NCBI GenBank assembly: GCA_964016885.1
Contig: OZ024744.1
Span: 88,846,001-88,910,000, forward strand
Source: Eledone cirrhosa
Taxonomy: Eukaryota
Direction: 5' to 3'
DNA length: 64,000 bases
Position 1 is the stretch's first letter. Each line of letters starts with the position of its first letter. The position numbers were made by a program, and so were the translations under genes. Positions 3,001 through 36,254 of the stretch are shown here, in pieces. Under the pieces are notes generated by a model. That model ran no database searches. It worked only from the letters and a program-made list of their open reading frames with translations, and was not told the origin of the DNA.

Positions 3001-3269
3001 CTGATCAATCTTCCCATCTTCTTGTTTTGACAAAGAAGTAGGTGCTTCGGCCATTTAAAAAGAAATGTAGTGTTTTGCAAAAATATTTTCGAAGATATTT
3101 TGGATGTTTTTGCCCTGAGGGGCACGATATTTTGGAGGACTGACCAGATCAAAATTTGACCTGTCAGTCCCTCTACAAATTGGTATAAAAATAAAAGTTC
3201 ACAATGACGAATTTCTAAGGAAATTTAAACAAATCTTACCGAGCAAGTTTAACACATGTGTCCATCCCA
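1..3269 (-). mobile_element. Tx1-like (L1 superfamily) non-LTR retrotransposon, copy A: 5' UTR, ORF1 and start of ORF2, running off the left edge; decayed
   Basis: Minus-strand ORF pieces: CYHCASRGH zinc knuckle, MANIRVGCVNVRGL (APE N-terminus), LLVGD, SRSYLDR and YSDH motifs. The 5' end TGGGATGGACAC matches copy E (22653) and abuts (GATA)n. Confidence 0.93.
1134..3054 (-). pseudogene. ORF1 (gag-like, CCHC knuckle) of copy A, frameshifted
   Basis: ATG GCC GAA GCA matches copy E MAEA. Homologous pieces at 1971-2159, 1378-1674 and 1134-1349. Confidence 0.8.
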
Positions 3270-4874: not shown

Positions 4875-6340
4875 ATGGCCCGCTTACAAGACACTGCATA
4901 GCAATATGGCCCGCCTATGAGACACTGCATAGCAATATGGCCCGCCTATGAGACACTGCATAGCAATGTGGCCCGCCTATGAGACACTGCATAGCAATAT
5001 GGCCCGCCTACGAGACACTACATAGCAATATGGCCCGCCTATGAGACACTGCATAGCAATGTGGCCCGCCTATGAGACACTGCATAGCAATATGGCCCGC
5101 CTATGAGACACTACATAGCAATATGGCCCGCCTATGAGACACTGCATAGCAATGTGGCCCGCCTATGAGACACTGCATAGCAATGTGGCCCGCCTATGAG
5201 ACACTGCATAGCAATATGGCCCGCCTACGAGACACTACATAGCAATATGGCCCGCCTATAAGACACTGCATAGCAATATGGCCCGCCTATGAGACACTGA
5301 ATAGCAATATGGCCCGCCTATGAGACACTACATAGCAATATGGCCCGCCTATGAGACACTGCATAGCAATATGGCCCGCCTACGAGACACTACATAGCAA
5401 TATGGCCCGCCTATAAGACACTGCATAGCAATATGGCCCGCCTATGAGACACTGCATAGCAATATGGCCCGCCTATGAGACACTACATAGCAATGTGGCC
5501 CGCCTACGAGACACTACATAGCAATGTGGCCCGCCTACGAGACACTACATAGCAATGTGGTCCGCCTACGAGACACTACATAGCAATGTGGCCCGCCTAC
5601 GAGACACTACATAGCAATGTGGCCCGCCTACGAGACACTACATAGCAATGTGGCCCGCCTACGAGACACTACATAGCAATGTGGTCCACCGACGAGACAC
5701 TACATAGCAATGTGGTCCGCCTACGAGACACTACATAGCAATGTGGCCCGCCTACGAGACACTACATAGCAATGTGGCCCGCCTACGAGACACTACATAG
5801 CAATGTGGTCCACCGACGAGACACTACATAGCAATGTGGTCCACCGACGAGACACTACATAGCAATGTGGCCCGCCTACGAGACACTGCATAGCAATGTG
5901 GTCCACCGACGAGACACTACATAACAATGTGGTCCACCGACGAGACACTACATAGCAATGTGGCCCGCCTATGAGACACTACATAGCAATGTGGCCCGCC
6001 TACGAGACACTACATAGCAATGTGGCCCGCCTACGAGACACTACATAGCAATGTGGCCCGCCTACGAGACACTACATAGCAATGTGGTCCACCGACGAGA
6101 CACTGCATAGCAATGTGGTCCACCGACGAGACACTACATAGCAATGTGGTCCACCGACGAGACACTACATAGCAATGTGGCCCACCTACGAGACACTGCA
6201 TAGCAATGTGGTCCACCGACGAGACACTGTATAGCAATGTGGTCCACCGACGAGACACTGCATAGCAATGTGGTCCACCGACGAGACACTACATAGCAAC
6301 ATCGCCCGCCTACGAGACACTACATAGCAATGTGGCCCGC
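4875..6340. repeat. 31-bp minisatellite, about 47 copies, inside the hAT element
   Basis: Unit ATGGCCCGCCTATGAGACACTGCATAGCAAT, period 31 (4875, 4906...). Confidence 0.96.
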
Positions 6341-7039
6341 ACATCCCCAAAGGTTGCCGACCCCTGATCTACAAAATAAATATCAGACTTCAAAAGCAAA
6401 TTTCTGGGGTCAGTATGGTGGACTACATCTCTTTAACGCAGTGCCCCAGCATGGCCACCATCTTATAACTGGAACAAGTAAAAGAATAATAGAATAAAAG
6501 AATAAGTGTTCTGTTCAAATCCACGGAAGACGTTTCATTTCTGCATTAGGCTGTTTGTTCATTTATTTCTTCTCTAATACATTTCACGAAAATATTCTAA
6601 TTTCCAGGGTCAACTTGTATACATTCTTATACACTTATGCAATGGTTGTCTCACCACTACTTCGGTAAGCTAATGAGAAGAAAGTTAGAAAGAACTTGCC
6701 TGGAATTGTCTCCACTACATACCGAAATAATATAATTAAAATTAGTAATTGAGTTAATCTGTATCTTTTATTTTTTATTTTTTTCCTTGCAGTACAATTA
6801 TTTCTTGTATTTTTTTTTATATTCCGAAGTGTAAATATGTTAAACATTAACGTACCACTTAGTTTGCGAGTTATTTATTCTGTAAATAATTCTATGCAAA
6901 TGAATGTGCATTATTCTGCATTTATTCAATGATTCTCTAGTCACTATTTTGGCAATGAAGTATTAACCATTGTTAATGAAGTATTAACCATTGTTAACAT
7001 CAGCACAATGCTTTAATTGAAAGTTCCTTGCTTTGAGTA

Positions 7040-8165
7040 AAAGAAAATACAGGAGGATCAATTAAAAGAAAATAGAAGAAATTCAGTTAATAGAAAATAC
7101 TGGAGGATCAATTAAAAGAAAATACAGGAGGATCAGTTAAAAGAAAATACAGGAGGATCAGTTAAAAGAAAATACAGGAGGATCAGTTAATAGAAAATAC
7201 TGGAGGATCAGTTAATAGAAAATACAGGAGGATCAGTTAATAGAAAATACAGGAGGATCAGTTAATAGAAAATACAGGAGGATCAGTTAATAGAAAATAC
7301 TGGAGGATCAATTAAAAGAAAATACAGGAGGATCAGTTAAAAGAAAATACAGGAGGATCAGTTAATAGAAAATACTGGAGGATCAATTAAAAGAAAATAC
7401 AGGAGGATCAGTTAAAAGAAAATACAGTAGGATCAGTTAATAGAAAATACTGGAGGATCAATTAAAAGAAAATACAGGAGGATCAGTTAAAAGAAAATAC
7501 AGGAAGATCAGTTAATAGAAAATACAGGAGGATCAGTTAATAGAAAATACAGGAGGATCAGTTAAAAGAAAATACAGGAGGATCAGTTAATAGAAAATAC
7601 TGGAGGATCAATTAAAAGAAAATACAGGAGGATCAGTTAAAAGAAAATACAGGAGGATCAGTTAATAGAAGATACTGGAGGATCAATTAAAAGAAAATAC
7701 AGGAGGATCAGTTAAAAGAAAATACAGTAGGATCAGTTAATAGAAAATACTGGAGGATCAATTAAAAGAAAATACAGGAGGATCAGTTAAAAGAAAATAC
7801 TGGAGGATCAATTAAAAGAAAATACAGGAGGATCAGTTAAAAGAAAATACAGGAGGATCAGTTAATAGAAAATACTGGAGGATCAGTTAAAAGAAAATAC
7901 AGGAGGATCAGTTAATAGAAAATACAGGAGGATCAGTTAATAGAAAATACAGGAGGATCAGTTAAAAGAAAATACAGGAGGATCAGTTAATAGAAAATAC
8001 TGGAGGATCAATTAAAAGAAAATACAGGAGGATCAGTTAAAAGAAAATACAGGAGGATCAGTTAATAGAAGATACTGGAGGATCAATTAAAAGAAAATAC
8101 TGGAGGATCAGTTAATAGAAAATACTGGAGGATCAGTTAATAGAAAATACAGGAGGATCGGTTAA
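7040..8165. repeat. 25-bp minisatellite, about 45 copies
   Basis: Unit AGGAGGATCAGTTAAAAGAAAATAC, period 25. Confidence 0.96.
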
Positions 8166-10591: not shown

Positions 10592-11077
10592 GAGAAAAAA
10601 AGAAAGAGTGGAAGAAGATGAGGAGGCAGAGTAGGGTGTGGGCGGGGAGGAGGAGGAGGGGCAGGACGAGGAGGAGGAAGGGGAGGAGGAGGAAGGGGAG
10701 GAGGAGGAGGTGATGGCAGTGTAGTGGGAGAAGGGGAGTAGGAAGAGGAGCAAGAGTATGTATGGCGAGGGGATAGAAGAGAGGGAAGTCGTTGAACGAG
10801 GAAGTTGACAATGAAGGAAGGAGGGAGTGTGAGTTGGAGATGAAACTGTTGTCTGTCTGTCTGTCTGCCTGTCAGTCTGTCTGTCAGTCTGTCTGTCTGT
10901 CTTTGATAGTAGACGTCTTGCACATCGGCTCTTCGATTTGGAATCTTTACTTGGATTATTTGTGAGTGTATTATTTAAATTGTTTTTCTATTATTGACTC
11001 TAACCCCTAGTCTGGGACTGTAGACGTAGGGTAAATATATTTTCACCCCTTTTGGGGTGAAAAATATTTAATTCAAA

Positions 11078-12592
11078 ATGTTCATCGATATCGTGGAAAA
11101 CGATATCGTTGAAAATGAGGAAGCCATATTGGAAGCTAACGCCACGCCTACCAAAAAAAGCGAGAAAGAGGGAACAACAATTCAAACTGTTGAACAGCCC
11201 TCCTCTCGAATGAAAAAAAGAATATTAATTCGAATGAAAACCTAAATTTTGAAGAAAAAAATAATAAGAAAATAAACACCACAAAAGAAGAAACCAACAA
11301 CATTGCAACAACAAGCAACAAAGACAACAACATTTCTTTTGCCCAAACGGTCAGGAAAGCTATCGAGTACAAGCCAATAGACATCACAAACGCTAAGCAG
11401 AACTTGTTAAATGCCAGAAAATACATATCTTTTGGGGAGGATGGTTCTTTTACGATCAACTCCCCAGAAGAAGTTCGCCAACAGGTATATAGGAATACCA
11501 TAACCTTCAGAACGATATCCAACACAACAAGAAAGCCAGCTCAATTGACAGAAAGTCAAATTGAGCTGGTGCTGAAAGACATTAAAGAAAACATACTTTT
11601 TATTGAAAGAGGAAAGCTGTATGCCAGCATTATGGCCGAATGAAGGACGAAATGCTGGCTCAAAAATGCTCGGTGGCACCTATAGTGTCACCACAATACA
11701 CCTTCTTCCCCACGTATAAAGGAAGAAGAACTCAGAGACTACGAATGTGGAGTCCAACGCCAGAAGTTAACATCTGGTCCGTCCTGACAGGATTTACGGA
11801 CCTAGAAAAGGACATTCTTATATCAGCAGGGGAGTCCACCAGTGGACTGTTCGGGGGGAAAAGTCTGGAGGTTCTCTTACAGATGACACCTGAGAGAATC
11901 GCCGGAATACCCGACCGAGTCCTACTGGATGGACGAACCTTCATCAATATTACGGTGGAAGGCAGGAGACCTTCATGTTACCACTGCGCTGGCAGAGGTC
12001 ACCTGAGGACGGCCTACCCTCTACAAACAACAAAAAAACCACTGCTACAAACACCACAACAACAACAAAAACAACCAGCACCACCACCACAAAAACAACA
12101 AAATACACTACCATCACCACCACAACGACAACAAAAACCAACAACACCACCTCCACCACCACAACCACAACAACAACATCAACAACAGTTCAAGAACAAC
12201 AAGCAAAAACAAACACAACAACACAAAAACTCTACACATACATAAACAAAAACAATAAAAACTTAACGGAAAAAATAGAAAACAACCCTTCGGTACAAAC
12301 CGAAGGGCCGAATTTTGCAACGGCAATGGGACTCCCTAACCTGAAAATGGTGAAAGTCCCACTTGACATTTTTAAAACTTTGAAAAACATTTACCCTGAG
12401 GACGTGGGGCCACCCTGCACCAGGCCACTCAACCGCGTCCTCCTGAAAGGTTTTCCCCTCCCCTCCTCAAACACCCCAACCCCTCCACACACTAATACCC
12501 CCACACAACCCCAAACCACCACCCCACCCAACAACCCCTCCACCGGCCCCATGGGAACTGAGCAGACCGGACCCCGGGACGCAGAGAGGTAA
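11078..12592 (+). pseudogene. ORF1 of copy B, frameshifted
   Basis: ORFs 11404-11643, 11640-12245 and 11975-12592 are homologous to ORF1 of the other copies; start codon uncertain. Confidence 0.78.
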
Positions 12593-12599
12593 GTGCCTC

Positions 12600-15500
12600 T
12601 CTCTGTCAGCCCGGTGGTGGGGCTGGGGTTGTCGTTCTGTTGCAAAAACATCTGGGTCTCGCTACACAGACGGTACACTTGGACCCGGAGGGTCGACTCG
12701 TGGTTCTGGACCTTGGCAATGGCTTTGAGGCTTGTCGCCGTATACGCCCCTTTTGGGGCCTTGCGGTCGGATTTCTTCCATCATCTGGAGACTTTTCTAG
12801 GGACGCCCCGCTCCTTGCTTTTAGTGGGGGACTGGAATGGTATCCTAGATGCACGTTGGGACTATGTAGGGGCATGTCCCGATAGAGGGGGGTGTAACAG
12901 CCTCAAGGGGTTAATCGGCCGATTTGACCTGGCCGATAGATACTGACTAGATTTTCCGACTGTGCCAACCTGGACTTGGTCAAATAACAGTGGTCAATCT
13001 AGATCGTACCTAGATAGGTTCTTAGTTAGAATTAAGGATAGGGACTTTTTAAGTTGTCCAGACATGCTCATGGTGGGCTATTCAGACCACAAGTTAGTGA
13101 CCTGCGTAGTCCACCTTGATAGAATGCATAGGCAGGGACCCGATTACTGGAAGCTCAGCTTGTCCTTACCGGCAAATAGAGCTTACAGGGACCGGATTAG
13201 CACCTTAGTTAAGGAGCGGTTGACGGGCGCCATCGTCAACAGCAGGTGGTGGGGATCTCTAAAAAGAGAGATTAGAGTAGTTTCAATAGGAGTTAGTAAG
13301 GAGTTAGCCTCAGATAGAAATAGGAAGGAAAGGGAGTTGGTAGTTATTGTTGAAGAGGCAATGAGAAGCGGCAATGTGGCCAGAGTGCAACGGTCGAGAA
13401 CGGCCTTGAACCAGTTCTTCGATGCGAAACACGAACGCTGCGTTGTCCGAAGCAAAATACGTACTCTGGAAAACGAGGGGACCAAAGCTGTTAGCTGGGC
13501 CCGCGTGACAGAAGCGAAAAGTGGGATTAAATCCACTATCCGGTCTTTGCGAGACCAGGATGGACGAGTTATCCTTGAACCTAAGCACTTGTGCGAGGCC
13601 TTTCAAAGGCACTTTGCCCGATTGTTCGGGAGGGGAGGGTGCCGGTTGGAGATGTGGATTTCGGTCCATACCTCGAAGCCCTGCCGCGTCTTTCGGACGA
13701 GGAGGGGAGGTCCTGCGACGGGCCGATCTCAGCTGCTGAAATAGGGGACGTGCTGAGCCTATGCGGCAAACGCAAATCTCCAAGGCTCGATGGTCTGCCC
13801 TACGAACTATATATTAATATGCCGGACTTGTTCCCCGATCTCCTCGAGGCGTTCTACTGCAACTGGCAACAGAACGGGAGAATTCCCTGTTCTGTGATCA
13901 AGGGCGTAGTCTCGCTAGTGAGGAAGGACGAGAATAAGGGGGATGACATTAGTAATTTTAGGCCCATAACTGCTAAATGCAGAGTTAAAGATTTTGGCCA
14001 AGGTGTTAGCGAAGAGGTTGGCGCTTGTCGTGGGGGGGCCTGGTGGGAGATGCGCAGACATGCGCTATCCCGTAGGTCCATCCACGACAACCTCCACCTC
14101 ATGCGATACATCATAGAGAGGGTTGGGAACGAACCCGGCTTTGGTGGGGCCCTGATAAATTTAGATCAGTCTAAAGCGTTCGATAGGGTGGACCATGGTT
14201 ACCTGGATGCGGTGCTAGCGGTGGATGGGTTCGGACCCGTTTTCAGGTGCTGGATCACTGCCATGCACAGCAGCTGCATCTGCTCTAGAGTCAAGGTGAA
14301 CGGCTACCTTTCGGAGCCGTTCGAAATCACCCGCTCCATCCGACAGGGGTGCCCTCTCTCCTCCCTTCTGTATGTATTGGCTCTCGAGCCACTACTGCGG
14401 AAGTTGGAGTTGTTGCAGGGCATCCCTTTGGAACCGGGATTGCGCAAAGCGGTGTCGGCCTACGCCGATGACATAACAGTAATGGTGTCGACCACTTCGG
14501 AAATCGAGGCAATCGGCACCTTACTGGAGGAGTACGAAAGGTTGACAGGGGCTAAGCTGAACCGGGACAAGTCAGTCGCTTTGCAACTCGGCGAGTGGAG
14601 GGGCAAACCGATGTCGTCCGACGGTATCGTCGGACGGTGGACGGAGGGCCAGGTGAAGTTGCTTGGGGTCTGGTTCGGACCGGACCTCCAGGTGGAGAAA
14701 AACTGGGCTGAGGTGACGAATAGGGTGTTTGCACTGACCCAGAAGTGGGCCGAGTGCAAACTATCCCTGAAAGGTCGGGCGGAGGTGGCGAACGCTTACA
14801 TAGCGTCCGTCATCTATTACCGCTTGACTGTCGTGCCTTTCCCGGGTGAGAACCTCGCCAAAATGGAGCGCGCCCTCTTTTATTTCCTTTGGAAGAAGAG
14901 GTCTCCTCTGGTGAAGAGATCCATCTGCTGTCAATACCCTTTGAAAGGAGAGCTGGGGATGCCGTGGCTAAAAATGCGTAAACACGCATTGAGGCTAAGG
15001 CACCTCCAGGTATTCCTCTCCGGTCAACCGGTGTGGGCCCCGTTTGTGAGGCGAGCCTTCCCGGCTATCGATGGAGACTCCACCTCGTCATTCTATAGAG
15101 GGCTGGTGGTTAGCAGGTGCGACGACGCCCTCGGAGAAACCCTAGGCATGGAGTAGGACGAACTGGCCAGTCTATTCGGTAGGACTTTGGGCCCGGGACC
15201 TATGGTCAACTTCCAGAAGTCCTTGGCCTGGCAGTGCTACCGAGGGGCTCTGCCCGTTCGGGATAAGCTCTACAGACACGGACGCCCGGGTAGGGACCCC
15301 TCGAAAAAGATCTGTCCCAGATGCGTGTGCGACGAGGAAACCGTCGCGCACGCATTGGTGCACTGCCCGGGCGTTGCCGATCTGTGGGGCTATGTCGAAC
15401 AACTGCTGTCACGGGTGGGACCAATTAGGTTGACCACCGAGTCTATTGTAACGATCAAGCCGCCTCCCCCCTTCAAAAATGAAGGAGAGGCGGTCTTCCT

Positions 15501-15680
15501 CTGTGTAATAGCCATGGTAAAAGAGGTTACATGGTGGACGCGTCTGAAAGGGCTGATGTCGGACACCTTTCTCTCCGGCCAACAACTGGTCCTTTTCTTC
15601 CGATACAGTTTTATGAAAGGTGGGTGAAAGTTGCGAGAATGGCCCGTGTGAATGGGCCTACTCTCTACCTCAGCCTGTAG
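12600..15680 (+). pseudogene. ORF2 (APE-RT-zinc finger) of copy B, start deleted, frameshifted
   Basis: ORFs 12593-12946, 12962-13744, 13591-15156 and 15187-15627. Confidence 0.92.
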
Positions 15681-16164
15681 GTGGAAAAGGAAGAAGGGAG
15701 CACCCTCTCTTTGTGCTCCCGTGGAGAAGGGTCGCACATTTTTTTCGAGGGTGTGTGTGACCCCAAAACGATCCGTCCCTATTGAGGACGTTCTTGTTAA
15801 AATTTTACTTATTACATTTTTCTTACTCGATTTTTATGTAAACTCCCCCCACCCATGTACATGTCCCTTTCTTTTGTGCCCTAGTGGCAAATAAACAGAA
15901 ATTAGTCTGTCAGTCTGTCTGTCTCGCTGTCTGTTTGTTGTCTGTGTGTCTGTCTCTGTCTGTCGAATGAGGTAGACGTGTATTAACGAGCTCTGTGTTT
16001 TACATTGGTTTTACCTTCTAAAGAGTGAGTTTTTGGATTATTTTTCTATTGTAATATAGTTTAACCCCTCGTTTGGGCCTGCAGACGTTGGGGTTATTAT
16101 TGTTTTCGCCCCTTTTGGGGGTGAAAGTTTTCTTCTTACAATTTTGTGAATTCAGCTTGTAGTA

Positions 16165-17883
16165 ATGGATGGCATTAATACAAGTCCTGGTGCCACACTC
16201 CGCCCCCCCCCCCCCCCCAAAAAAAAATCTTCGAGGAAAAATGAAAGCACAAAGTGCCCAGCTTCCTCCCCACTTTCCTTTAACGAAAAACGTTAATAAG
16301 GAACAACAGTAAACAACCGAAAAGATAAAAATTGGAAATAATACCAGCAACGGAAAAATTATGGATACCAATACGAACACCAAAGTGAACAATGACAACA
16401 ACAACAATAACAAGAAAGACAACGACAACAAAATTTCCTTTGCGGAAACTGTAAAAAAAACACAAGTGTTCCTACCTTTGGATTTAACCAACGCAAAGCA
16501 AAAGTTAGAAGAAGCAAAAAGGTATGTGACTTTCGAACCCGATTGTTCATTCAGCATTAATTCCCCTGAAGAAATAAAAAGAGAAATTGCCACGAGCACG
16601 GTGGTATTCAGGACAATGTCGAATGCGACAAAAAAACCAGTACAACCGTCTCAGAGTGAGATAGAGCTGGTTTTAAGGAACTAAATGGAAAACATTTTGT
16701 TCATTCAAAAAAGAAAACTCTTCGGTAGCATCTCGCTGCTTATGAAGAATCAAGAAACGGCGCAAAAACATTCCATTGCGCCTATTGTATCCACCCACTT
16801 CACCTTTTTCCCGTCTTACATGGGAAGAAGGTCTCAAAAAATAAAATTCCACTGCATAAGACCCAAAGTAGACACTTGGTGGATACTTTGTGGCGTTTTA
16901 GACCTTGACCAAGACATTATAATCTCGGTTGGAAAGTCCTCTCTGGGAGAGAGGTCTTTAGTGGGACCAGCATAGAACTTCTGGTGCAGATGAGCCCAGA
17001 AAAGATAGCGAAGATCCCACAGAGAATTCATTTAGATGGAGAGACCTACATAAACATTTCAGTTGAGGGTAGGCGACACGCGTGTTACCACTGCGCAAGC
17101 AGAGGTCACCTGCGGGTTGCATGCCCTCAACTGATAAAAAAGAAACCTTTATTACAAACACCACAAACAATAACACGGCCAAAACCACCACAACAACAAC
17201 ATCATCAACAACAGCTCAAGAAAACAACCCAAAACACGGCCCCACCCAACCGCTCCCCACAGAACACAAATACAAAAACACACGCAGTGCAAAAACAACC
17301 TGGCAGTATACCCCTCCCCTCCAATACGGAAGAGGAGCTCATATCCTCGGAAGACGAGGGGGCTCCCTTCCAAAAAGTCAAAAGAAAAAAACGTACACAC
17401 ACCACACAAACAAAAATAACCACACCTGAAAACACAACACAGACAACAAAGCGCAAGCTCACTCAAGAACAACAAACAAAAACAAACACAACAACACAAA
17501 AAAATCTACACATACATAAACAAAAACAATAAAAACTTAGCAGACAAAATAAACAACAACTCTTCGGTACAAACCGAAGGGCCGAATTTTACAATGACAA
17601 CGGGACTCCCTAACATGAAAATGGTGAAGGTCCCAATTGACTTTTTTAAAACATTGAAAAACATTTACCCTGAGGACGTGGGGCCACCCTGCACCAGGCC
17701 ACTCAGCCGCGTCCTCCTGAAAGGTTTTCCCCTCCCCTCCTCAAACACCCACACAATTCCAAACACCCCAACCCCTCCACACACTAATACCCCCACACCA
17801 CCACAAACCACCACCCACCCAACTACCCCTCCACCACCCCCATGGAAACTGAACAGCCCGGACCCCGGGACGCAGAGAAGTAA
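16165..17883 (+). pseudogene. ORF1 of copy C, frameshifted
   Basis: ORFs 16361-16684, 16685-16975, 16984-17532 and 17594 onward; start codon uncertain. Confidence 0.78.
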
Positions 17884-17905
17884 GTGCCTCTTTCTTTACC
17901 ACCAA

Positions 17906-20900
17906 ATGGCTGTGTTAAGAGTAGGTTGTCTAAATGCGCGTGGCCTGGGCTCACCTTGGAAGCAAGCTAAACTTCTAAATGATCTCAGGTCACGATGTAT
18001 AAATGTGATGGTTATTTGCGAGGCCCGGATCAGCAGCGTGCGACAACTATCCCCCACCTTTGATGACTTTGAGGTGCACCCATCACTCTGTCAACCCGGA
18101 GGTGGGGTGGGGTTGTCGTTCTGCTGCAAAAACATCTGGGTCTCGCTACACAGACGGTACACTTGGACCCGGAGTGTCGACTGGTGCTTCTGGACCTTGG
18201 CAGTGGTGAAGGCGAAGCTTTTAGGTTTGTCGCCGTTTACGCCCCTCTTGGGGCAATGCGGTCGGACTTCTTCCATCGTCTGGAGGCTTTTCTAGGGACG
18301 TCCCGCTCCTTGCTTTTAGTGGGGGACTGGAATGATATCCTAGATGCACGTTGGGACTATGTAGGGGCATGTCCCGATAGAGGGGGTGTAACAACCTCAA
18401 GGGGTTAATCGGCCGATTTGACCTGGCGATAGATATCGACTAGATTTTCCGACTGTGCCAACTTGGACTTGGGCGGTTAATCTAGATCGTACCTAGATAG
18501 GTTCTTAGTTAGAATTAAGGATAGGGATTTTTTAATTTGTCCAGAAATGCTCATGGTGGGCTATTCAGACCACAAGTTAGTGACCTGCATAGTACATCTT
18601 GATAGAACGCATAGGCAGGGACCCGATTACTGAAAGCTCAACTTGTCCTTACCGGCAAATAGAGCTTACAGGGACCGGATTAGAACCTTAGTTAAGGAGC
18701 GGTTGACGGGCGCACTCGTCAACAGTAGGTGGTGGGGATCTCTGAAAAGAGAGATTAGAGTAGTTTCAATAGGAGTTAGTAAGGAGTTAGCCTCAGATAG
18801 AAATAGGAAGGAAAGGGAGCTGGTAGTTAATGTTGAAGAGGCAATGAGAAGCGGCAACGTGGCCAGAGTGCAAGCGTCGAGAACGACCTTGAGCCAGCTC
18901 TTCGACGCGAAACACGAACGCTGCGTTGTCCGAAGCAAAATACGTGCTCTGGGAAACGAGGGGACCAAAGCTGTTAGCTGGGCCCGCGTGACAGAAGCCA
19001 AAAGTGGGATTAGATCCACTATCCGGTCTTTGCGAGACCAGGATAGACGGGTGATCATTGAACCTAAGCAAGTGTGCGAGCCTTTCAAAGGCACGTTGCC
19101 CGATTGTTCGGGAGGGGCGGGGGGGATGTGAATTTCGGTCCATACCTCGACGGCCTGCCGCGTCTTTCGGACGAGGAGGGGAGGTCCTGCGACGGACCGA
19201 TCTCAGCTGCTGAAATAAGGGACGTGCTAAGCCTATGCGGCAAACGCAAATCTCCAGGCTTCGATGGTCTGCCCTACGAACTATATATTAATATGCTGGA
19301 CTTGTTCCCCGATCTCCTCGAGGCGTTCTACTGCAACTGGCAACAGAACGGGAGAATTCCCTGTTCTGTGACCAAGGGCGTAGTCTCGCTAGTGAGGAAG
19401 GACGAGAATAAGGGGGATGACATTAGTAATTTTAGGCCCATAACTCTGCTAAATGCAGAGTTAAAGATTTTGGCCAAGGTGTTAGCGAAGAGGTTGGCGC
19501 TTGTCGTGGGGGGCCTGGTGGGAGATGCGCAGACATGCGCTATCCCGTCCAGGTCCATCCACGACAACTTCCACCTCATGCGATATATCATAGAGAGGGT
19601 TGGGAACGAACCCGGCTTTGGTGGGGCCCTGATAAATTTAGATCAGTCTAAAGCGTTCGATAGGGTGGACCATGGTTACCTGGATGCGGTGCTAGCGGCA
19701 GCTGGTTTCGGACCCGTTTTCTGGGGCTGGATCACTGCCATGCATAGCAGCTGCATCTGCTCTAGAGTCAAGGTGAACGGCTACCTCTCGGAGCCTTTCG
19801 AAATCACCCGCTCCATCCGACAGGGATGCCCTCTCTCCTCCCTTCTGTATGTATTGGCTCTCGAGCCACTACTGCGGAAGCTGGAGTTGTTGCAGAGCAT
19901 CCCTTTGGAAACAGGATTGCGCAAAGCGGTGTCGGCCTACACCGATGACATAACAGTAATGGTGTCGACCACTTCGGAAATCGAGGCAATCGGCACCTTA
20001 CTGGAGGAGTACGAAAGGTTGACAGGGGCTAAGCTGAACCGGGACAAGTCAGTCGCTTTGCAACTCGGCGAGTGGAGGGGCAAACTGATGTCGTCCGACG
20101 GTATCGTCGGACGGTGGACGGAGGGCCCGGTGAAGTTGCTTGGGGTCTGGTTCGGACCGGACCTCCAGGTGGAGAAAAACTGGGGTGAAGGGACGAACAG
20201 GGTGTTTGCACTGACCCAGAAGTGGGCCGAGTGCAAACTATCCCTGAAAGGAGGTCGGGCGGAGGTGGCGAACGCATACATAGCGTCCGTCATCTATTAC
20301 CGCTTGACTGTCGTGCCTTGCCCGGGTGAGATCCTCGCCAAAATGGAGCGCGCTCTCTTTCATTTCCTTTGGAAGAAGGGATTTCCTCTGGTGAGGAGAT
20401 GCATCTGCTGTCAACACCCTTTGAAAGGAGGGCTGGGGATGCCGTGGCTAAAAATGCGTAAACACGCATTGAGGCTAAGGCACCTCCAGGTATTCCTCGC
20501 CGGTCAACCGGTGTGGGCCCCGTTTGTGAGGCGAGCCTTCCCGAGGCTCGTCTCGCTCACCGAGCTGCAGTCCTGGGTGAAGCAAAGACCGAGAAAACTG
20601 GGCGACTGGCACACCGAGTGTGCCCAGGCGCTCACGGTTCTCTGGCAGGTGGTCCCGGCTATCGGTGGAGACTCCACCTCGTCATTCTATAGAGGGCTGG
20701 TGGTTAGCAGGTGCGACGACGCCCTCGGAGAAACACTAGGCATGGAGTAGGACGTACTGGCCAGCCTATTCAGTAGGACCTTCAGCCCGGGACCTATGGT
20801 CAACTTCCAGAAGTCTTTGGCCTGGCAGTGCTACGTAGGGGCTCTGCCCTTTCGGGATAAGCTCTACAGACACGGACGCCCGGGTAGGGACCCCTCAAAA

Positions 20901-21323
20901 AAGATCTGTCCCAGATGGGTGCGCGACGAGGAAACCGTCGCGCACGCATTGGTGCACTGCCCGGGCGTTGCCGATCTGTGGGGCTATGTCGAACAACTGC
21001 TGTCACGGGTGGGACCAATTAGGTTGACCACCGAGTCCATTGTAACGATCAAGCCGCCTCCCCCCTTCAAACATGAAGGAGAGGCGGTCTTCCTCTGTGT
21101 AATAGCCATGGGAAAAGAGGTTATATGGTGGACGCGTCTGAAAGGGCTGATGTCGGACACCTTTCTCTCCGGCCAACAATTGCTCCTTTTCTTCCGATAC
21201 TATTTCGGAAGAAGGATCAGGATGGAGAGAGAGGTGCTCCACTCCAGCCAGTTTTATGAAAGGTGGGTGAAAGTTGCGAGAATGGCTCGTGTGAATGGGC
21301 CTTCTCTCTACCTCAGCCTGTAG
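17906..21323 (+). pseudogene. ORF2 (APE-RT-zinc finger) of copy C
   Basis: All domains present across 5-6 frames; the RT motif reads YTDD where B and E have YADD. Confidence 0.93.
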
Positions 21324-21668
21324 GTGGAAAAGGATGAAGGAAGAAGGGAGCACCCTCTCTTTGTGCTCCCGTGGAGAAGAGTCACACATTTTTTTTTTTT
21401 TTTTTTAGGCGGTGTGTGTGACCCCAAAACGATCCCTCCCTATTGAGGACCTTTTTGTTCCAATTTTATTTATTACATTTTTCTTACTCGATTTATATGT
21501 AAACCCCCCCACCCCCACCCCATGTACATGTCGCTTTCTTTTGTACCCTCGTGGCAAATAAACAGAAAATTGTCTCTCTGTCAGTCTGTGTGTCTGTGTG
21601 TCTGTCTGTCTCTCTCTCTGTCAGTCTGTCAGTCTGTCAGTCTCTCTGTCTCTGTCAGTCTGTCTGTC

Positions 21669-22642
21669 TTTGATAGTAGATGTCTTGCACATCGGCGCTT
21701 CGGACCCGGCTGTCAGTGGAGAATCCACCTCGTCATTCTATAGAGGGCTAGTACGCAGCAGGTGCGACGACGCCCTCGGAGAAGCCCTAGGCATGGATGA
21801 AAACGAACTGGCCAACCTGTTCGGTAGGACATTCAGCCCGGGACCTATGGATAACTTCCAGAGGTCCCTGGCCTGGCAGTGCTACCGAGGGGCTCTGCCC
21901 GTCCGAGAAAGGCTCTACAGACACGGGCGCCCGGGTAGGGACCCCTCGAAAAAGATCTGTCCCAGATGCGTGTGCGACGAGGAAACCGTTACACACGCAT
22001 TGGTACACTGCTCTGGCATTGCCGATCTGTGGGGCTATGTCGAACGACTGCTGTCACGGGTGGGACCGATCCGGTTGACCACCGAGTCTATTGTAACGAT
22101 CAAGCCTCCTCCCCTCTTCAAACACGAAGGAGAGGCGTGTTTCTGTGCGTAATAGCCATGGCGAAAGAGGTTGTATGGTGGACGCGTCTGAAAGAACTGA
22201 GGTCAGACACCTTTCTCTCTGGCCAACAACTGGTCCGTTTCTTCCGATATCATTTCGGAAGAAGGATCAGGATGGAGAGAGAGGTGCTGCACCCCAGCCG
22301 TTTTTATGAAAGATGGGTGAAAGTGGCGAGAATGGCCCGTGTGAATGGGCCTTCACTCTACATCAGACTATAGGTGAAAAATATGAAAGACCAAGGAAGC
22401 ACACCTTCTCTGTGCTCCTGAGGAGAAGGGTTGCACACTTTTTTCGGGGGTGTGTGCGACCCCCCAAGGCGCCTCCTCCCTATTGAGGATTTTGTTATTC
22501 AATTTATTTTTGTTATATTTTATATTTTATATTTTCATATTTTGTTATTGCCTCCTCCTTAGTGAGGACGCCTTTTTATGTAAACTCCCCCAATTGTACT
22601 TGTCCCACTCTTTGATGCCCTGGTGGCAAATAAAAAGAAAGT
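21669..22642 (+). mobile_element. Short Tx1-like copy D: about 28 nt of B-type 5' end joined to the last ~0.95 kb of an element
   Basis: TTTGATAGTAGATGTCTTGCACATCGGC matches the B 5' end, then DPAVSGESTSSFYRG...CPRCVC..HALVHC, 3' UTR and AATAAA. Confidence 0.88.
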
Positions 22643-22652
22643 TATCTATCTC

Positions 22653-25600
22653 TGGGATGGACACACGCGTGAAACATGCTGGGTAAGTTCTGCTTAAATT
22701 TCTATAGAATTTTTGACTGTGAAATTTTTTTTTATACCAATTTGTAGAGGGACTGCCAGGTCAAATTTTGATCTGGTCAGTCTCTCAAAAAATCTACACC
22801 TTTAGGCGAAATAGTTCATAAATAAAAAATTTTGGGGGAAAAACTAACGTTTTAAAAAAAAATGGCTGAAGCAACAACTTCTTCACCAACATTCGAAGGA
22901 GGAAAGAGGAAGATATGCTTACAGCTTCCCCCTTCCATTGTCATAGTAGCAGATGTCTCAGACAAAGGTCAGTCAGAGGAAGGATTTTGTTCACCTGCTG
23001 ACCAAGAACTTGACGTTGCCATGGCAACAAACCAAAAACAAAAGTGTGAAACAATGAACAAAAACAACACAACCAGCGGCACCAGCAACAACAACAACAA
23101 CAACAATGCTATGAAAGAAAACAACACCAACAACAAGAACAATAACAACAAGAAGACCAATAACAGCAACAAGGAAGTAAACGACAAAATATCGTTTGCG
23201 CAAACCGTAAAGAAAAGGGTAAGCTACACTCCGGTGGATATTTCAAATGCAAATGAGCTTTTGAATAACGCCAGACAGTACATAACTTTTGGGGAGAACG
23301 GATCATTCTCAATAAACTCTCCCCCAGATTTGCGAAGAGAAACTGCCTTGAAAACTGTGGTTTTCAGGACATTCTCAAACAAAACCCGAAAACCGACTCA
23401 ACTTTCACAAGGTGAAATTGAGTTGGTTTTAAAGGATGCCTTAAAAGACATTGCTTTCATTCAGACGGGTAGACTCTACGGGAGTTTATCCATTCTGATG
23501 AAAGACCAATTGACGGCACAGAAATATTCTGTTTCGCCAATTATGTCACCTTTTTCCTCACTTACATGGAGAAAAGAACACAGAAAATAAAAATCCAAAG
23601 TATCACATCAAATATTAATATTTGGTGGGTACTATATGGATTTTTAAACCTCCCAAAAGACTCGATAATATCGGTAGGTAAGTCCTCCGGTGACCTGTTC
23701 AGCCGAACTAGCCTGGAAATTCTGGTCCAAATGACCCCAGAACGAATAGCTAGGATCCCGGAACGTGTGCTGCTGGATGGGCTTATATACATAAACATTT
23801 CGTCGAGGGTAGGCGGCCCTCATGTTACAACTGCTTAAGCAGGGGTCACCTCAGAGTCTCCTTTCCTCGGCTAACTAGCCAAAAAAAAGGCACTGCAACA
23901 CCAGCAACACCAGCAAAACAATCACCACTACCACAACAACAACAACAAAAATAGTGACAGCAAAACAAACGACAAACAGAGTCCCACCCAACCCCCTCCC
24001 CACCTAAAACTACTCCAGAACCACCCACACACATAACAGCTCCACAAAATGAACCCCTCCCCAACAACAAGGATGAGGCCTCATCATCGTCACCCAGTGA
24101 CGATCAGGGAGAGCCTTTCCGACCAGTAAAATGAAAAAAGAAAAGACATAACACAAACCAAAATGCAACAAACAGACAAACACCAACACAAGCGACGCAA
24201 ACACCAAAAACAAAAACACCCCCTCCTAAAAACAAAACACATACTCCAAAACGTAAACACACACAAGAACCACAGACAAAAAGCAACACAACACAACAAA
24301 AAGTTACACCTATATAAATACTAACACTAAAACTTTAACAGACACCGTATATAAAAACCCTTCGGTGGAGACCGAAGGGAAAACATTTAAACACTATTCG
24401 GAGAATCCTAATCTTAAAATGATTAGGATTTCCATGGACACACATAAACAGTTAAAAGGAAAATTTCCTAACGACGTAGGTAACCCCTGCGTCAAACCCA
24501 ACAATCGAGTCCTGTTAAAAGGTTTCCCCACCCCCACCCCAGGCATCCCAGCCCAGACACCCCCACCCAGACACCCCCATCCCACCAGACACCCCCTCCC
24601 CACCAAACATCTCCGTCCCCACCCCGCCAGAAACCACCACCCCACCAAACAACACCCCATGGAAATTGTGCAGCCTGGTCCCTAGGAGACGAAGAGGCGA
24701 GTGATTTTTTTTCTTCTTTTAACTTTTCAGCACCAACATGGCCAATATAAGAGTTGGATGTGTGAATGTACGCGGCCTGGGGATGCCTTGGAAAAAGGGC
24801 AAACTCTTAAAAGACCTCAGGTCGCACAGTATGGGTGTAATAGTCATTTGCGGGTCCAGGATCCACAGCGAGCGACAACTGGCCCCCATCTTCTGTCACC
24901 CGGGAGGTGGGGGCGGTGTTGCCGTTTTGCTGCGGAAGCACCTGGACCTCGTAACACAGACGGTACATTTGGACACGGAGGGTCGACTAGTGGTCCTAGA
25001 CGTTGACGGTAGTTAAGGTGGTACCTTCAGGCTGGTGGTCGCATATGCCCCATCCGAGACACCGCAGCCAGAAATCTTCAAACGTCAAAACACTTGCTGT
25101 TAGTGGGGGACTGTAATGGAATCCTAGATGTACGTTGGGACTATGTGGGAGCATGTCCCAATAGAGGGGGTGTAACAGCCTCAAACAGTTAATCGGCCGA
25201 TTTCAACTGGCCGATAGATATCGACTAGATTTTCCGACTGTGCCACTGTGGACGTGAACCAACCACAGCGGGACATCTAGATCGTACCTAGATAGGTTTC
25301 TAGTTAGGGTTAGTGATATGGTCATGTTAAACTGTTGACAAATGTCCATGGTTGCCTATTCAGAACACAAACTAGTGACCTGCATAGTCAACATTGACAG
25401 AACCCATAGACAGGGACCCGGCTACTGGAAGCTGAACTTGTTATTACTGACATGCAAAGCGTACAGTAGACGGATCAACACTTTAGTTAAGCAACACTTG
25501 ACGGGGGCCATTGTCAACAACAGATGGAGTTACTCTCTCAAGAGATTAGACTCGATAGGTTTTAGTAAAGAATTTGTTAGATTGAAATAAGACCGAAAAG

Positions 25601-35007: not shown

Positions 35008-36254
35008 AGGGTACATTAGAATACCTGAAGTACATTCGGGTGGTTTGTGACTTACCTCAGTAAACAATTGTTACATTGTGCTTTTTATTTTAGGTACATT
35101 AGAATACCTGAAGTACATTCGGGTGGTTTGTGACTTACCTCAGTAAACAATTGTTACATTGTGCTTTTTATTTTAGGTACATTAGAATACCTGAAGTACA
35201 TTCGGGTGGTTTGTAACTTACCTCAGTAAACAATTGTTACATTGTGCTTTTTATTTTAGGTACATTAGAATACCTGAAGTACCTTCGGGTGGTTTGTGAC
35301 TTACTTCAGTAAACAATTTTTACATTGTGCTTTTTATTTTAGGTACATTAGAATACCTGAAGTACATTCGGGTGGTTTGTGACTTACCTCAGTAAACAAT
35401 TGTTACATTGTGCTTTTTATTTTAGATACATTAGAATACCTGAAGTACATTCGGGTGGTTTGTGACTTACCTCAGTAAACAATTGTTACATTGTGCTTTT
35501 TATTTTAGGTACATTAGAATACCTGAAGTACATTCGGGTGGTTTGTAACTTACCTCAGTAAACAATTGTTACATTGTGCTTTTTATTTTAGGTACATTAG
35601 AATACCTGAAGTACATTCGGGTGGTTTGTAACTTACCTCAGTAAACAATTGTTACATTGTGCTTTTTATTTTAGGTACATTAGAATACCTGAAGTACATT
35701 CGGGTGGTTTGTGACTTACCTCAGTAAACAATTGTTACATTGTGCTTTTTATTTTAGGTACATTAGAATACCTGAAGTACCTTCGGGTGGTTTGTGACTT
35801 ACTTCAGTAAACAATTGTTACATTGTGCTTTTTATTTTAGGTACATTAGAATACCTGAAGTACATTCGGGTGGTTTGTGACTTACCTCAGTAAACAATTG
35901 TTACATTGTGCTTTTTATTTTAGGAACATTAGAATACCTGAAGTACATTCGGGTGGTTTGTAACTTACCTCAGTAAACAATTGTTACATTGTGCTTTTTA
36001 TTTTAGGTACATTAGAATACCTGAAGTACATTCGGGTGGTTTGTGACTTACCTCAGTAAACAATTGTTACATTGTGCTTTTTATTTTAGGTACATTAGAA
36101 TACCTGAAGTACATTCGGGTGGTTTGTGACTTACCTCAGTAAACAATTGTTACATTGTGCTTTTTATTTTAGGTACATTAGAATACCTGAAGTACCTTCG
36201 GGTGGTTTGTGACTTACCTCAGTAAACAATTGTTACATTGTACTTTTTATTTTA
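35008..36254. repeat. 83-bp tandem repeat, about 15 highly homogeneous copies
   Basis: Unit AGGTACATTAGAATACCTGAAG...GTGCTTTTTATTTT, period 83 (35258, 35341). Confidence 0.96.

Follow-up and report, generated by a model that had tools for sequence, protein, structure and literature searches.

We analyzed a 64,000-nucleotide (nt) stretch of the genome of the octopus Eledone cirrhosa (assembly GCA_964016885.1, contig OZ024744.1, positions 88,846,001 to 88,910,000 of the forward strand), which we call the window and number from its first letter; the genome surrounding it comprises 3.0 Gb. A host HSP60 exon is 99% identical to the protein of Octopus vulgaris and no more than 89% to any of the other hits listed, which marks the host as an octopus. 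The window contains copies, named A, B, C, and E, of long interspersed nuclear elements (LINEs) with two open reading frames (ORFs). Our subject is a short GT..AG segment, resembling an intron, that lies in the 5' untranslated region (UTR) of all four copies, in each case ahead of the ORF1 ATG and in copy E entirely within the UTR. Since LINEs are copied from their own RNA, they are expected to lose introns. The four segments named by the original prediction are exact in the sequence. They occupy two positions within the UTR, here called registers, and are accompanied by hairpins and by a second donor at the end of ORF1:

Copy E
22659-22664, forward: GGACAC, the position-conserved RGACRY motif near the 5' end, by alignment
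22683-22747, forward: GT..AG segment, 65 nt, register 1, with the donor about 33 nt into the element and the AG at the base of hairpin 1
22713-22717, forward: branch-like motif TTGAC, inside the 65-nt segment
22747-22786, forward: hairpin 1, its first base pair formed by the G of the acceptor AG, from the fold of E-family copy L006 and covariation
22797-22808, forward: hairpin 2, a short GC stem with one mismatch in copy E
22862-22864, forward: ORF1 start codon
24697-24702, forward: second donor at the ORF1 end, mutated to GCGAGT (GTGAGT in relatives)

Copy A
3239-3173, reverse: GT..AG segment, 67 nt, register 1
3135-3173, reverse: hairpin 1, beginning at the acceptor G, from the fold of A-family copy L166
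1132-1137, reverse: second donor GAG/GTGAGT, overlapping the ORF1 stop

Copy B
10962-11023, forward: GT..AG segment, 62 nt, register 2
11000-11004, forward: branch-like motif CTAAC, inside the 62-nt segment
11005-11032, forward: hairpin 1, spanning the acceptor and possible only in unspliced RNA
11040-11063, forward: hairpin 2, from folding and the consensus fold
12589-12594, forward: second donor GAG/GTAAGT, at the ORF1 end

Copy C
16025-16084, forward: GT..AG segment, 60 nt, register 2
16061-16065, forward: branch-like motif TTAAC, inside the 60-nt segment
16061-16096, forward: hairpin 1, containing the branch-like motif and the acceptor, from the fold of C-family copy L093 and the consensus fold
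16103-16126, forward: hairpin 2, from folding
17880-17885, forward: second donor GTAAGT, overlapping the ORF1 stop, 26 nt before the ORF2 ATG at 17906
19068-20750, forward: ORF2 reverse transcriptase (RT) frame, L1-type, Pfam RVT_1 E 1.7e-26

By their domain content, the elements are L1/Tx1-type LINEs, with an apurinic/apyrimidinic endonuclease (APE) and an L1-type RT predicted in ORF2. ORF2 matches the Pfam families RVT_1 and zf-RVT, its best homologs carry PF03372 and PF00078, that is, APE endonuclease and RT, and the solved structure closest to the copy C RT is human L1 ORF2p (E 2e-38, versus E 3e-17 for R2). ORF1 is separate from ORF2 and has a zf-CCHC match under the curated cut-off (E 0.0076), and the 3' ends of the elements carry AATAAA. 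A query with the APE region matches intact ORF2 frames of 1167-1173 amino acids in the same element group and, since such frames are many, the group is by this measure young. A search of the genome for a more distant Tx1 lineage yielded only this same group in the 40 of 150 places inspected. The Tx1-like label rests on the original prediction, the architecture, and the target preference, with no named Tx1 reference among the homologs returned. A Penelope-like element was rejected on account of the L1-type RT, the two ORFs, the AATAAA 3' ends, and the lack of GIY-YIG and pseudo-long terminal repeat (pLTR) features.

The 5' flanks examined show the repeat-target preference of the Tx1 clade, with (TCTA)n preceding 24 of 30 E copies and (TCTG)n preceding 26 of 30 B and 23 of 30 C copies. 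TCTA goes with the E, A, L123, and L127 types and TCTG with B and C (L numbers denote individual loci). Head-to-tail arrays of mixed families are joined by (TCTA)n or (TCTG)n in the window (1-28200) and at loci L121-L180, and a related 3' end lies upstream in 16 of 30 E loci. The RGACRY motif recurs 8-13 nt from the 5' end of all four copies (22659-22664, 10911-10916, 15974-15979, and, on the reverse strand, 3263-3258). It resembles the core consensus of the downstream promoter element (DPE), and if it is one, transcription would start in the flanking microsatellite.

Donor, acceptor, and spacing across the element group

Outside the window, 60 flanking stretches gave 22 further 5' ends (9 + 13), six other ORF1 hits being truncated or rearranged, and the donor-acceptor unit is present in all 22. 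From 26 aligned UTRs we chose 16 representatives by dropping near-duplicates; the ORF1 regions of these lineages are mostly 51-68% identical to each other. A donor and a YAG spaced 58-69 nt apart occur in 16/16. Defined as GT(A/G)AG or GTAGG followed 50-75 nt on by CAG or TAG, within the first 170 nt, the unit is found in 16/16 UTRs, in a mean of 8.6% (range 2-16%) of dinucleotide shuffles, and in 0/16 antisense sequences, a null that serves only as a guide, since we settled on the motif set with the data in view and the UTRs, being related, do not amount to 16 independent trials.

The donors are GTAAGT, GTGAGT, GTAGGT, GTAAGA, and GTAAGC, all compatible with the U1 small nuclear ribonucleoprotein (U1), and in all 16 representatives they match 6-8 of 9 positions of the donor consensus. 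Donors without G at -1 have G at +5 and T at +6 in 9/9 cases, and 4/7 donors with it depart at +4 or +6; compensation between -1 and +5/+6 is known from real 5' splice sites. A YAG acceptor follows within 50-75 nt of the donor in every representative, and a branch-like motif is found in 13/16, including all ten of register 2, where the pyrimidine tract is weak or G-rich. Within families, GT and AG are each kept in 40/41 E copies and 30/30 B copies, and in 28/30 and 29/30 C copies, respectively. Columns with recurrent subfamily variants in E, B, and C number 22 of 160 in the interior of the segment, 0 of 18 at the donor, 1 of 12 at the acceptor, and 2 of 120 in exon 2.

The original prediction also held that the segments agree in length and borders although, by eye, the A/E and B/C UTRs do not align. 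The UTRs do align by way of intermediate families and so are homologous, and the segment occupies different registers in the two pairs. Register 1 comprises E, A, L161, L123, L176, and L122, with the donor about 30 nt into the element and the AG at the base of hairpin 1. Register 2 comprises B, C, L129, L131, L180, L171, L147, L124, L137, and L127; here the donor is displaced downstream by about 33 nt and the AG by about 25 nt (counted on L129), placing the AG inside hairpin 1. In either register the donor stays 30-65 nt from the element 5' end, and the length of 58-69 nt is preserved through the shift. The unused splice sites have mostly decayed. L129 and L131, of register 2, resemble register-1 UTRs base for base but have GAGAAG and CAGAAG at the register-1 donor, and E and A have GGGAC and TGAT at the register-2 branch-motif and acceptor sites, with the hairpin still pairing. 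This decay is incomplete, L123 retaining the register-2 CAG and L131 the register-1 TAG. The two registers with their kept length, the U1-compatible donors, and the branch-like motif in most representatives support the view that the segment behaves as a splice unit under selection.

An ORF1 tree gave no direction for the register shift, owing to weak deep nodes, swapped 5' heads, and the mis-anchoring of L006 and L165. The type of 5' UTR is uncoupled from the ORF1 lineage: the ORF1 of A (register 1) is 80% identical to that of C (register 2), and that of L161 (register 1) is 92% identical to that of L137 (register 2), which suggests that 5' heads were swapped between lineages. Relatives in metagenomes comprise 34 loci, with best segments mostly 24-48% identical and mostly without full 5' ends. 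Among the nine inspected, L216 has an acceptor-like site (1-100), and L211 (25-35) and L217 (16-25) have perfect donor-like sites at contig starts.

Retention, hairpins, and the second donor

In a genome-wide pattern search with the two exon flanks, counting exact matches only and scoring a gap of 0-12 nt as spliced, the intron-size gap is found in 88 E, 52 B, and 17 C copies and the spliced gap in none of the three families. The count of copies with and without the segment, proposed as a check by the original prediction, is thus 157 versus 0. With exon 2 of E alone as query, 30/30 loci have intron sequence before the acceptor, two being truncated at or just before the donor and two having short interior deletions. 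Choosing 40 places by ORF2 similarity gave 32 with a recognizable 5' end and 8 that are truncated or interrupted; the segment is kept in all 32, with both GT and AG in 29. Copies of the spliced integrated retrotransposed element (SpIRE) type, with the segment removed exactly at GT..AG, therefore number 0/157 by patterns and 0/32 by ORF2 choice, supporting the claim that the segment is retained in the transposing RNA. Of the functional intron that had been proposed, the splice-unit-like behavior under selection and the retention in copies stand, whereas splicing itself is a candidate property only. The B 5' end shows no splice joint against contigs of four sequencing runs of unrecorded kind, contigs being apt to drop rare forms. 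The 5' end of the L171 subfamily likewise shows none against two such runs, one of which (X4) has a single unspliced contig over the acceptor that leaves exon 1 and the donor uncovered. Neither result therefore counts for or against splicing.

Two hairpins follow the segment in nearly all families, in shortened form in L122. In hairpin 1, two-sided changes occur in 7 of 12 pairs (14 sequences), and 75.6% of cells pair, a fraction reached by 0 of 500 shuffles; the covariation structure was written from L129, with the E and A rows displaced by one column. Both stems also emerge from an independent consensus fold of 10 sequences, and the common G-U pairs in hairpin 1 point to structure at the RNA level. 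The acceptor G is predicted to be paired in 16/16 UTRs. In register 2, hairpin 1 holds the acceptor and, as in C, the branch-like motif, its acceptor AG pairs with a conserved CT, and it can form only in unspliced RNA; in register 1 it lies wholly in exon 2 and would survive splicing. An Rfam search over window positions 10800-23000 left the UTR hairpins unmatched, its two weak matches, far below the gathering score, both lying in a 3' UTR. With nothing on the UTRs from Rfam, a known self-cleaving ribozyme is not supported.

As a yardstick, we measured 32 host introns in HSP60 and CCT genes (9 exact, 22 approximate, and 1 short exact). The shortest is 81 nt, so that the unit, at 58-69 nt, is below all of them, and the nine HSP60 acceptors are strongly T-rich, unlike the register-2 units. 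The part of PMC11649378 used here gives no minimal intron size for molluscs.

A near-perfect donor, RAG/GTRAGT or RAG/GTAGGT, recurs at the ORF1 end in 64 of 70 ORF1-ORF2 junctions, 26-54 nt before ORF2 and 1.6-2 kb downstream of the first donor. Comparably strong donor motifs number only 3-5 per 5-kb element. In most families the second donor overlaps the stop codon, and in the L127/L270 family it consists of sense codons, not a stop, yet is kept. A CAG follows only in the A/E-type spacer, about 34 nt on, and mostly there is no nearby acceptor. All 63 ORF1 ends found continue unspliced, and none of 10 metagenome relatives has a second donor at the matching place. A fusion of ORF1 to ORF2 through this donor was rejected, there being no conserved in-frame acceptor nearby. 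In the window copies and at loci L121-L180 and L260-L299, a pyrimidine tract and then the ORF2 start come after the second donor. The L127 family (L270-L275, L293, and L295-L299), young and with intact ORF2, has no ATG at the usual ORF2 start; the TAG that ends its ORF1 shares bases with an ATA in frame with ORF2, a hint that ORF2 may be reinitiated at a non-AUG codon.

Readings of the retained unit

We favor, at about an even chance of being right, the reading that the segment is a selected mini-intron that the spliceosome would recognize and mostly leave in place, and that it is one of two U1 sites raising and protecting full-length transcription. This reading starts from what is seen directly, namely the sequence and its conservation, the two registers, the retention in copies, the covarying hairpin, and the second donor, and adds steps for U1 that we infer. 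U1 bound to the first donor, so close to the 5' end, would raise the output of RNA polymerase II (intron-mediated enhancement) and could also suppress AATAAA signals in the A-rich ORF1; in B, C, and E, sense AATAAA follows the first donor at distances of 100-1500 nt. For ORF2 the same role would fall to the second donor, with suppression of premature 3' ends. The T-rich body, the branch-like motif, and the AG may stabilize early spliceosome assembly over so short an intron, and catalysis would stay rare owing to hairpin 1 and to a length under that of the measured host introns. Because the acceptor is predicted to be buried in the hairpin, the RNA copied into DNA is likely unspliced, and rare splicing would, in this proposal, leave the unit in the template; any spliced RNA would make up under about 2% of templates or be a dead end. 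In human reporters, the strength of the first 5' splice site and U-rich motifs drive enhancement independently of 3' splice site strength (bioRxiv 10.64898/2026.09.28.754465), and U1 at the Copia donor blocks premature termination of unspliced RNA (PMC5580714).

Several points weigh against this U1-site reading. U1 binding, splicing, and retention are all read from genomic DNA, the 16 UTRs descend from few origins, and the enhancement preprint (bioRxiv 10.64898/2026.09.28.754465) analyzed well-spliced introns only. If the acceptor is never used, the preservation of the AG, the branch-like motif, and the length through the shift is harder to explain than that of the donor alone. The acceptor side is also the less regular one: L124 reads CGG where the acceptor normally lies and must rely on an AG 6 nt beyond, the branch-like motif is missing in 3/6 register-1 representatives, the pyrimidine tract is weak in several, and acceptor columns -4 to -1 (1/12) are not clearly more constrained than exon 2 (2/120). 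Masking of the acceptor is by itself weak evidence, since 52% of 111 other AGs in the UTRs also have a paired G. The count of 0/157 is compatible with spliced copies at about 2%, the human L1 level, 32 host introns are too small a sample to fix the lower length limit, and at the second site the stop codon explains three of the six donor bases in most families.

The joint movement of donor, acceptor, and length, the branch-like motif in 10/10 register-2 representatives, and a hairpin that straddles the acceptor in register 2 would suit a division of the transcript into two pools, a possible though doubtful alternative in which part of the RNA is efficiently spliced and exported as mRNA and unspliced RNA is the sole template. 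In register 2, splicing would remove the 5' arm of hairpin 1, which would act as a template or packaging mark; the 0/157 spliced copies fit such a strict choice of template, and Copia elements use a split of this kind (PMC5580714). It would, however, have to break with cis preference: in human L1, which acts in cis, spliced RNAs retrotranspose and account for about 2% of full-length insertions (PMC5860796). Moreover, hairpin 1 of register 1 would survive splicing, yet 0/88 E copies are spliced, and splicing alters no coding sequence. Relative to ORF1, the frame of an upstream ORF in E varies (20 of 30 copies scored), which speaks against the two pools and led us to reject an upstream-ORF switch in E. 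Just as tentative is the proposal of a true, structure-gated spliceosomal intron kept through the joint shift, with hairpin 1 sorting spliced mRNA from unspliced template and a second U1 site at the ORF1 stop protecting ORF2 transcription.

Both rest on RNA, and the same motifs might instead act in DNA, as promoter elements that resemble splice sites, the AG being a by-product of hairpin pairing. The human L1 donor G98U99 lies within a RUNX3 site (PMC5860796), the octopus segment lies in a probable internal promoter region after the conserved RGACRY, and the register-2 acceptor AG has its conserved CT partner. We nevertheless consider this unlikely, as donor and acceptor move in concert, the donor by about 33 nt, the five donor variants show the -1/+5+6 compensation, a signal of the same kind reappears 1.6-2 kb on, where ORF1 ends, and the G-U pairs point to RNA. 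The original prediction's suggestion that the intron helps the transcript pass as a host mRNA, here as an escape from HUSH-like surveillance of intronless RNA, draws on the protection that introns give against HUSH without being spliced (PMC8770142); according to the same source, short and very short introns protect to a limited extent or not at all, which weakens the suggestion and leaves it improbable. That chance motifs were simply inherited by related copies is scarcely credible. Copies of one family do share all ancestral sequence, and T-rich UTRs hold many AGs, but 16/16 against 8.6% of shuffles and 0/16 antisense sequences, together with the two registers and the decay of unused sites, largely refute that explanation.

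Known systems and neighboring features

A close parallel is human L1 with its G98U99 donor and SpIREs (PMC5860796), likewise an L1-type LINE with a long-conserved donor near the 5' end, whose RNA is mostly unspliced and for which structure has been suggested as a mask; the corresponding state of the octopus elements is predicted from genomic copies. In human L1, splicing yields dead-end copies. Its introns, however, are hundreds of bases long, its acceptors vary, its donor is explained by the RUNX3 site, and about 2% of its full-length insertions are spliced copies (PMC5860796), as against 0/157 here. The octopus unit of 58-69 nt instead keeps donor, acceptor, and length through a shift and has a predicted mask on the acceptor. 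In the Arabidopsis Ty1/Copia element EVD, a U1-type donor is kept at the end of the first (structural) ORF, as is the octopus second donor, and U1 protects the unspliced full-length RNA (PMC5580714). EVD differs as a long terminal repeat (LTR) element with a coding intron and demonstrated splicing that makes a GAG mRNA (PMC5580714), whereas the first octopus unit lies in a LINE UTR, its splicing is only predicted, and the second donor has no conserved nearby acceptor.

Penelope-like elements also keep spliceosomal introns through retrotransposition, but have GIY-YIG and pLTRs, and retention is proposed to occur via an antisense template (PMC3846280); with an L1-type RT, two ORFs, and an AATAAA 3' end, a sense template is expected for the octopus elements. 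Kibi, Koshi, and the crocodilian (TTCC)n/(TTTC)n Tx1 elements are likewise two-ORF, APE-type LINEs in short tandem repeats (PMC4494074), with targets different from the (TCTA)n and (TCTG)n used here. The part of PMC4494074 consulted mentions 'intron' four times, never for Tx1 UTRs, and PMC13282606 and PMC9115989 do not mention such an intron. We found no report of a conserved 5' UTR intron in Tx1 in the literature searched, with Repbase, subscription papers, and supplements outside its scope and an earlier mention possible there. Thus, retained introns or U1 sites are already known from Penelope, Copia, and human L1; new relative to the literature found is a minimal unit that a LINE group has kept, that has changed place while holding its length, that is linked to a hairpin, and that has a counterpart in a second donor where ORF1 ends.

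A LINE group that retains so small a unit across deep lineages, shifts its two ends in concert, and bears a second U1-type site at the end of ORF1 would mean that the spliceosome can serve non-LTR elements, as it does retroviruses and Copia, either to aid transcription or to sort RNA; with a structure-gated intron, a non-LTR retrotransposon would govern the fate of its RNA much as retroviruses do and would depart from simple cis preference. A 60-nt unit and one hairpin in young families with intact ORF2 offer a compact test system that bears on enhancement by a promoter-proximal donor without splicing and on the choice of template RNA by a LINE, and the two registers provide a natural record of intron relocation under length constraint.

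The window holds several other features. Six long ORFs elsewhere in it have no Pfam match. A deleted derivative at 21670-22636 joins about 35-45 nt of a B-type head, which stops short of the donor, to the 3' end of ORF2; the junction lies at the same place in ORF2 (C 20651-20653) as an internal deletion in copy B. Minisatellite arrays with periods of 31, 25, and about 83 nt lie at 4876-6340, 7038-8165, and 35010-36254, and copies of a dispersed repeat, about 190 nt long, are scattered between 29137 and 57297.

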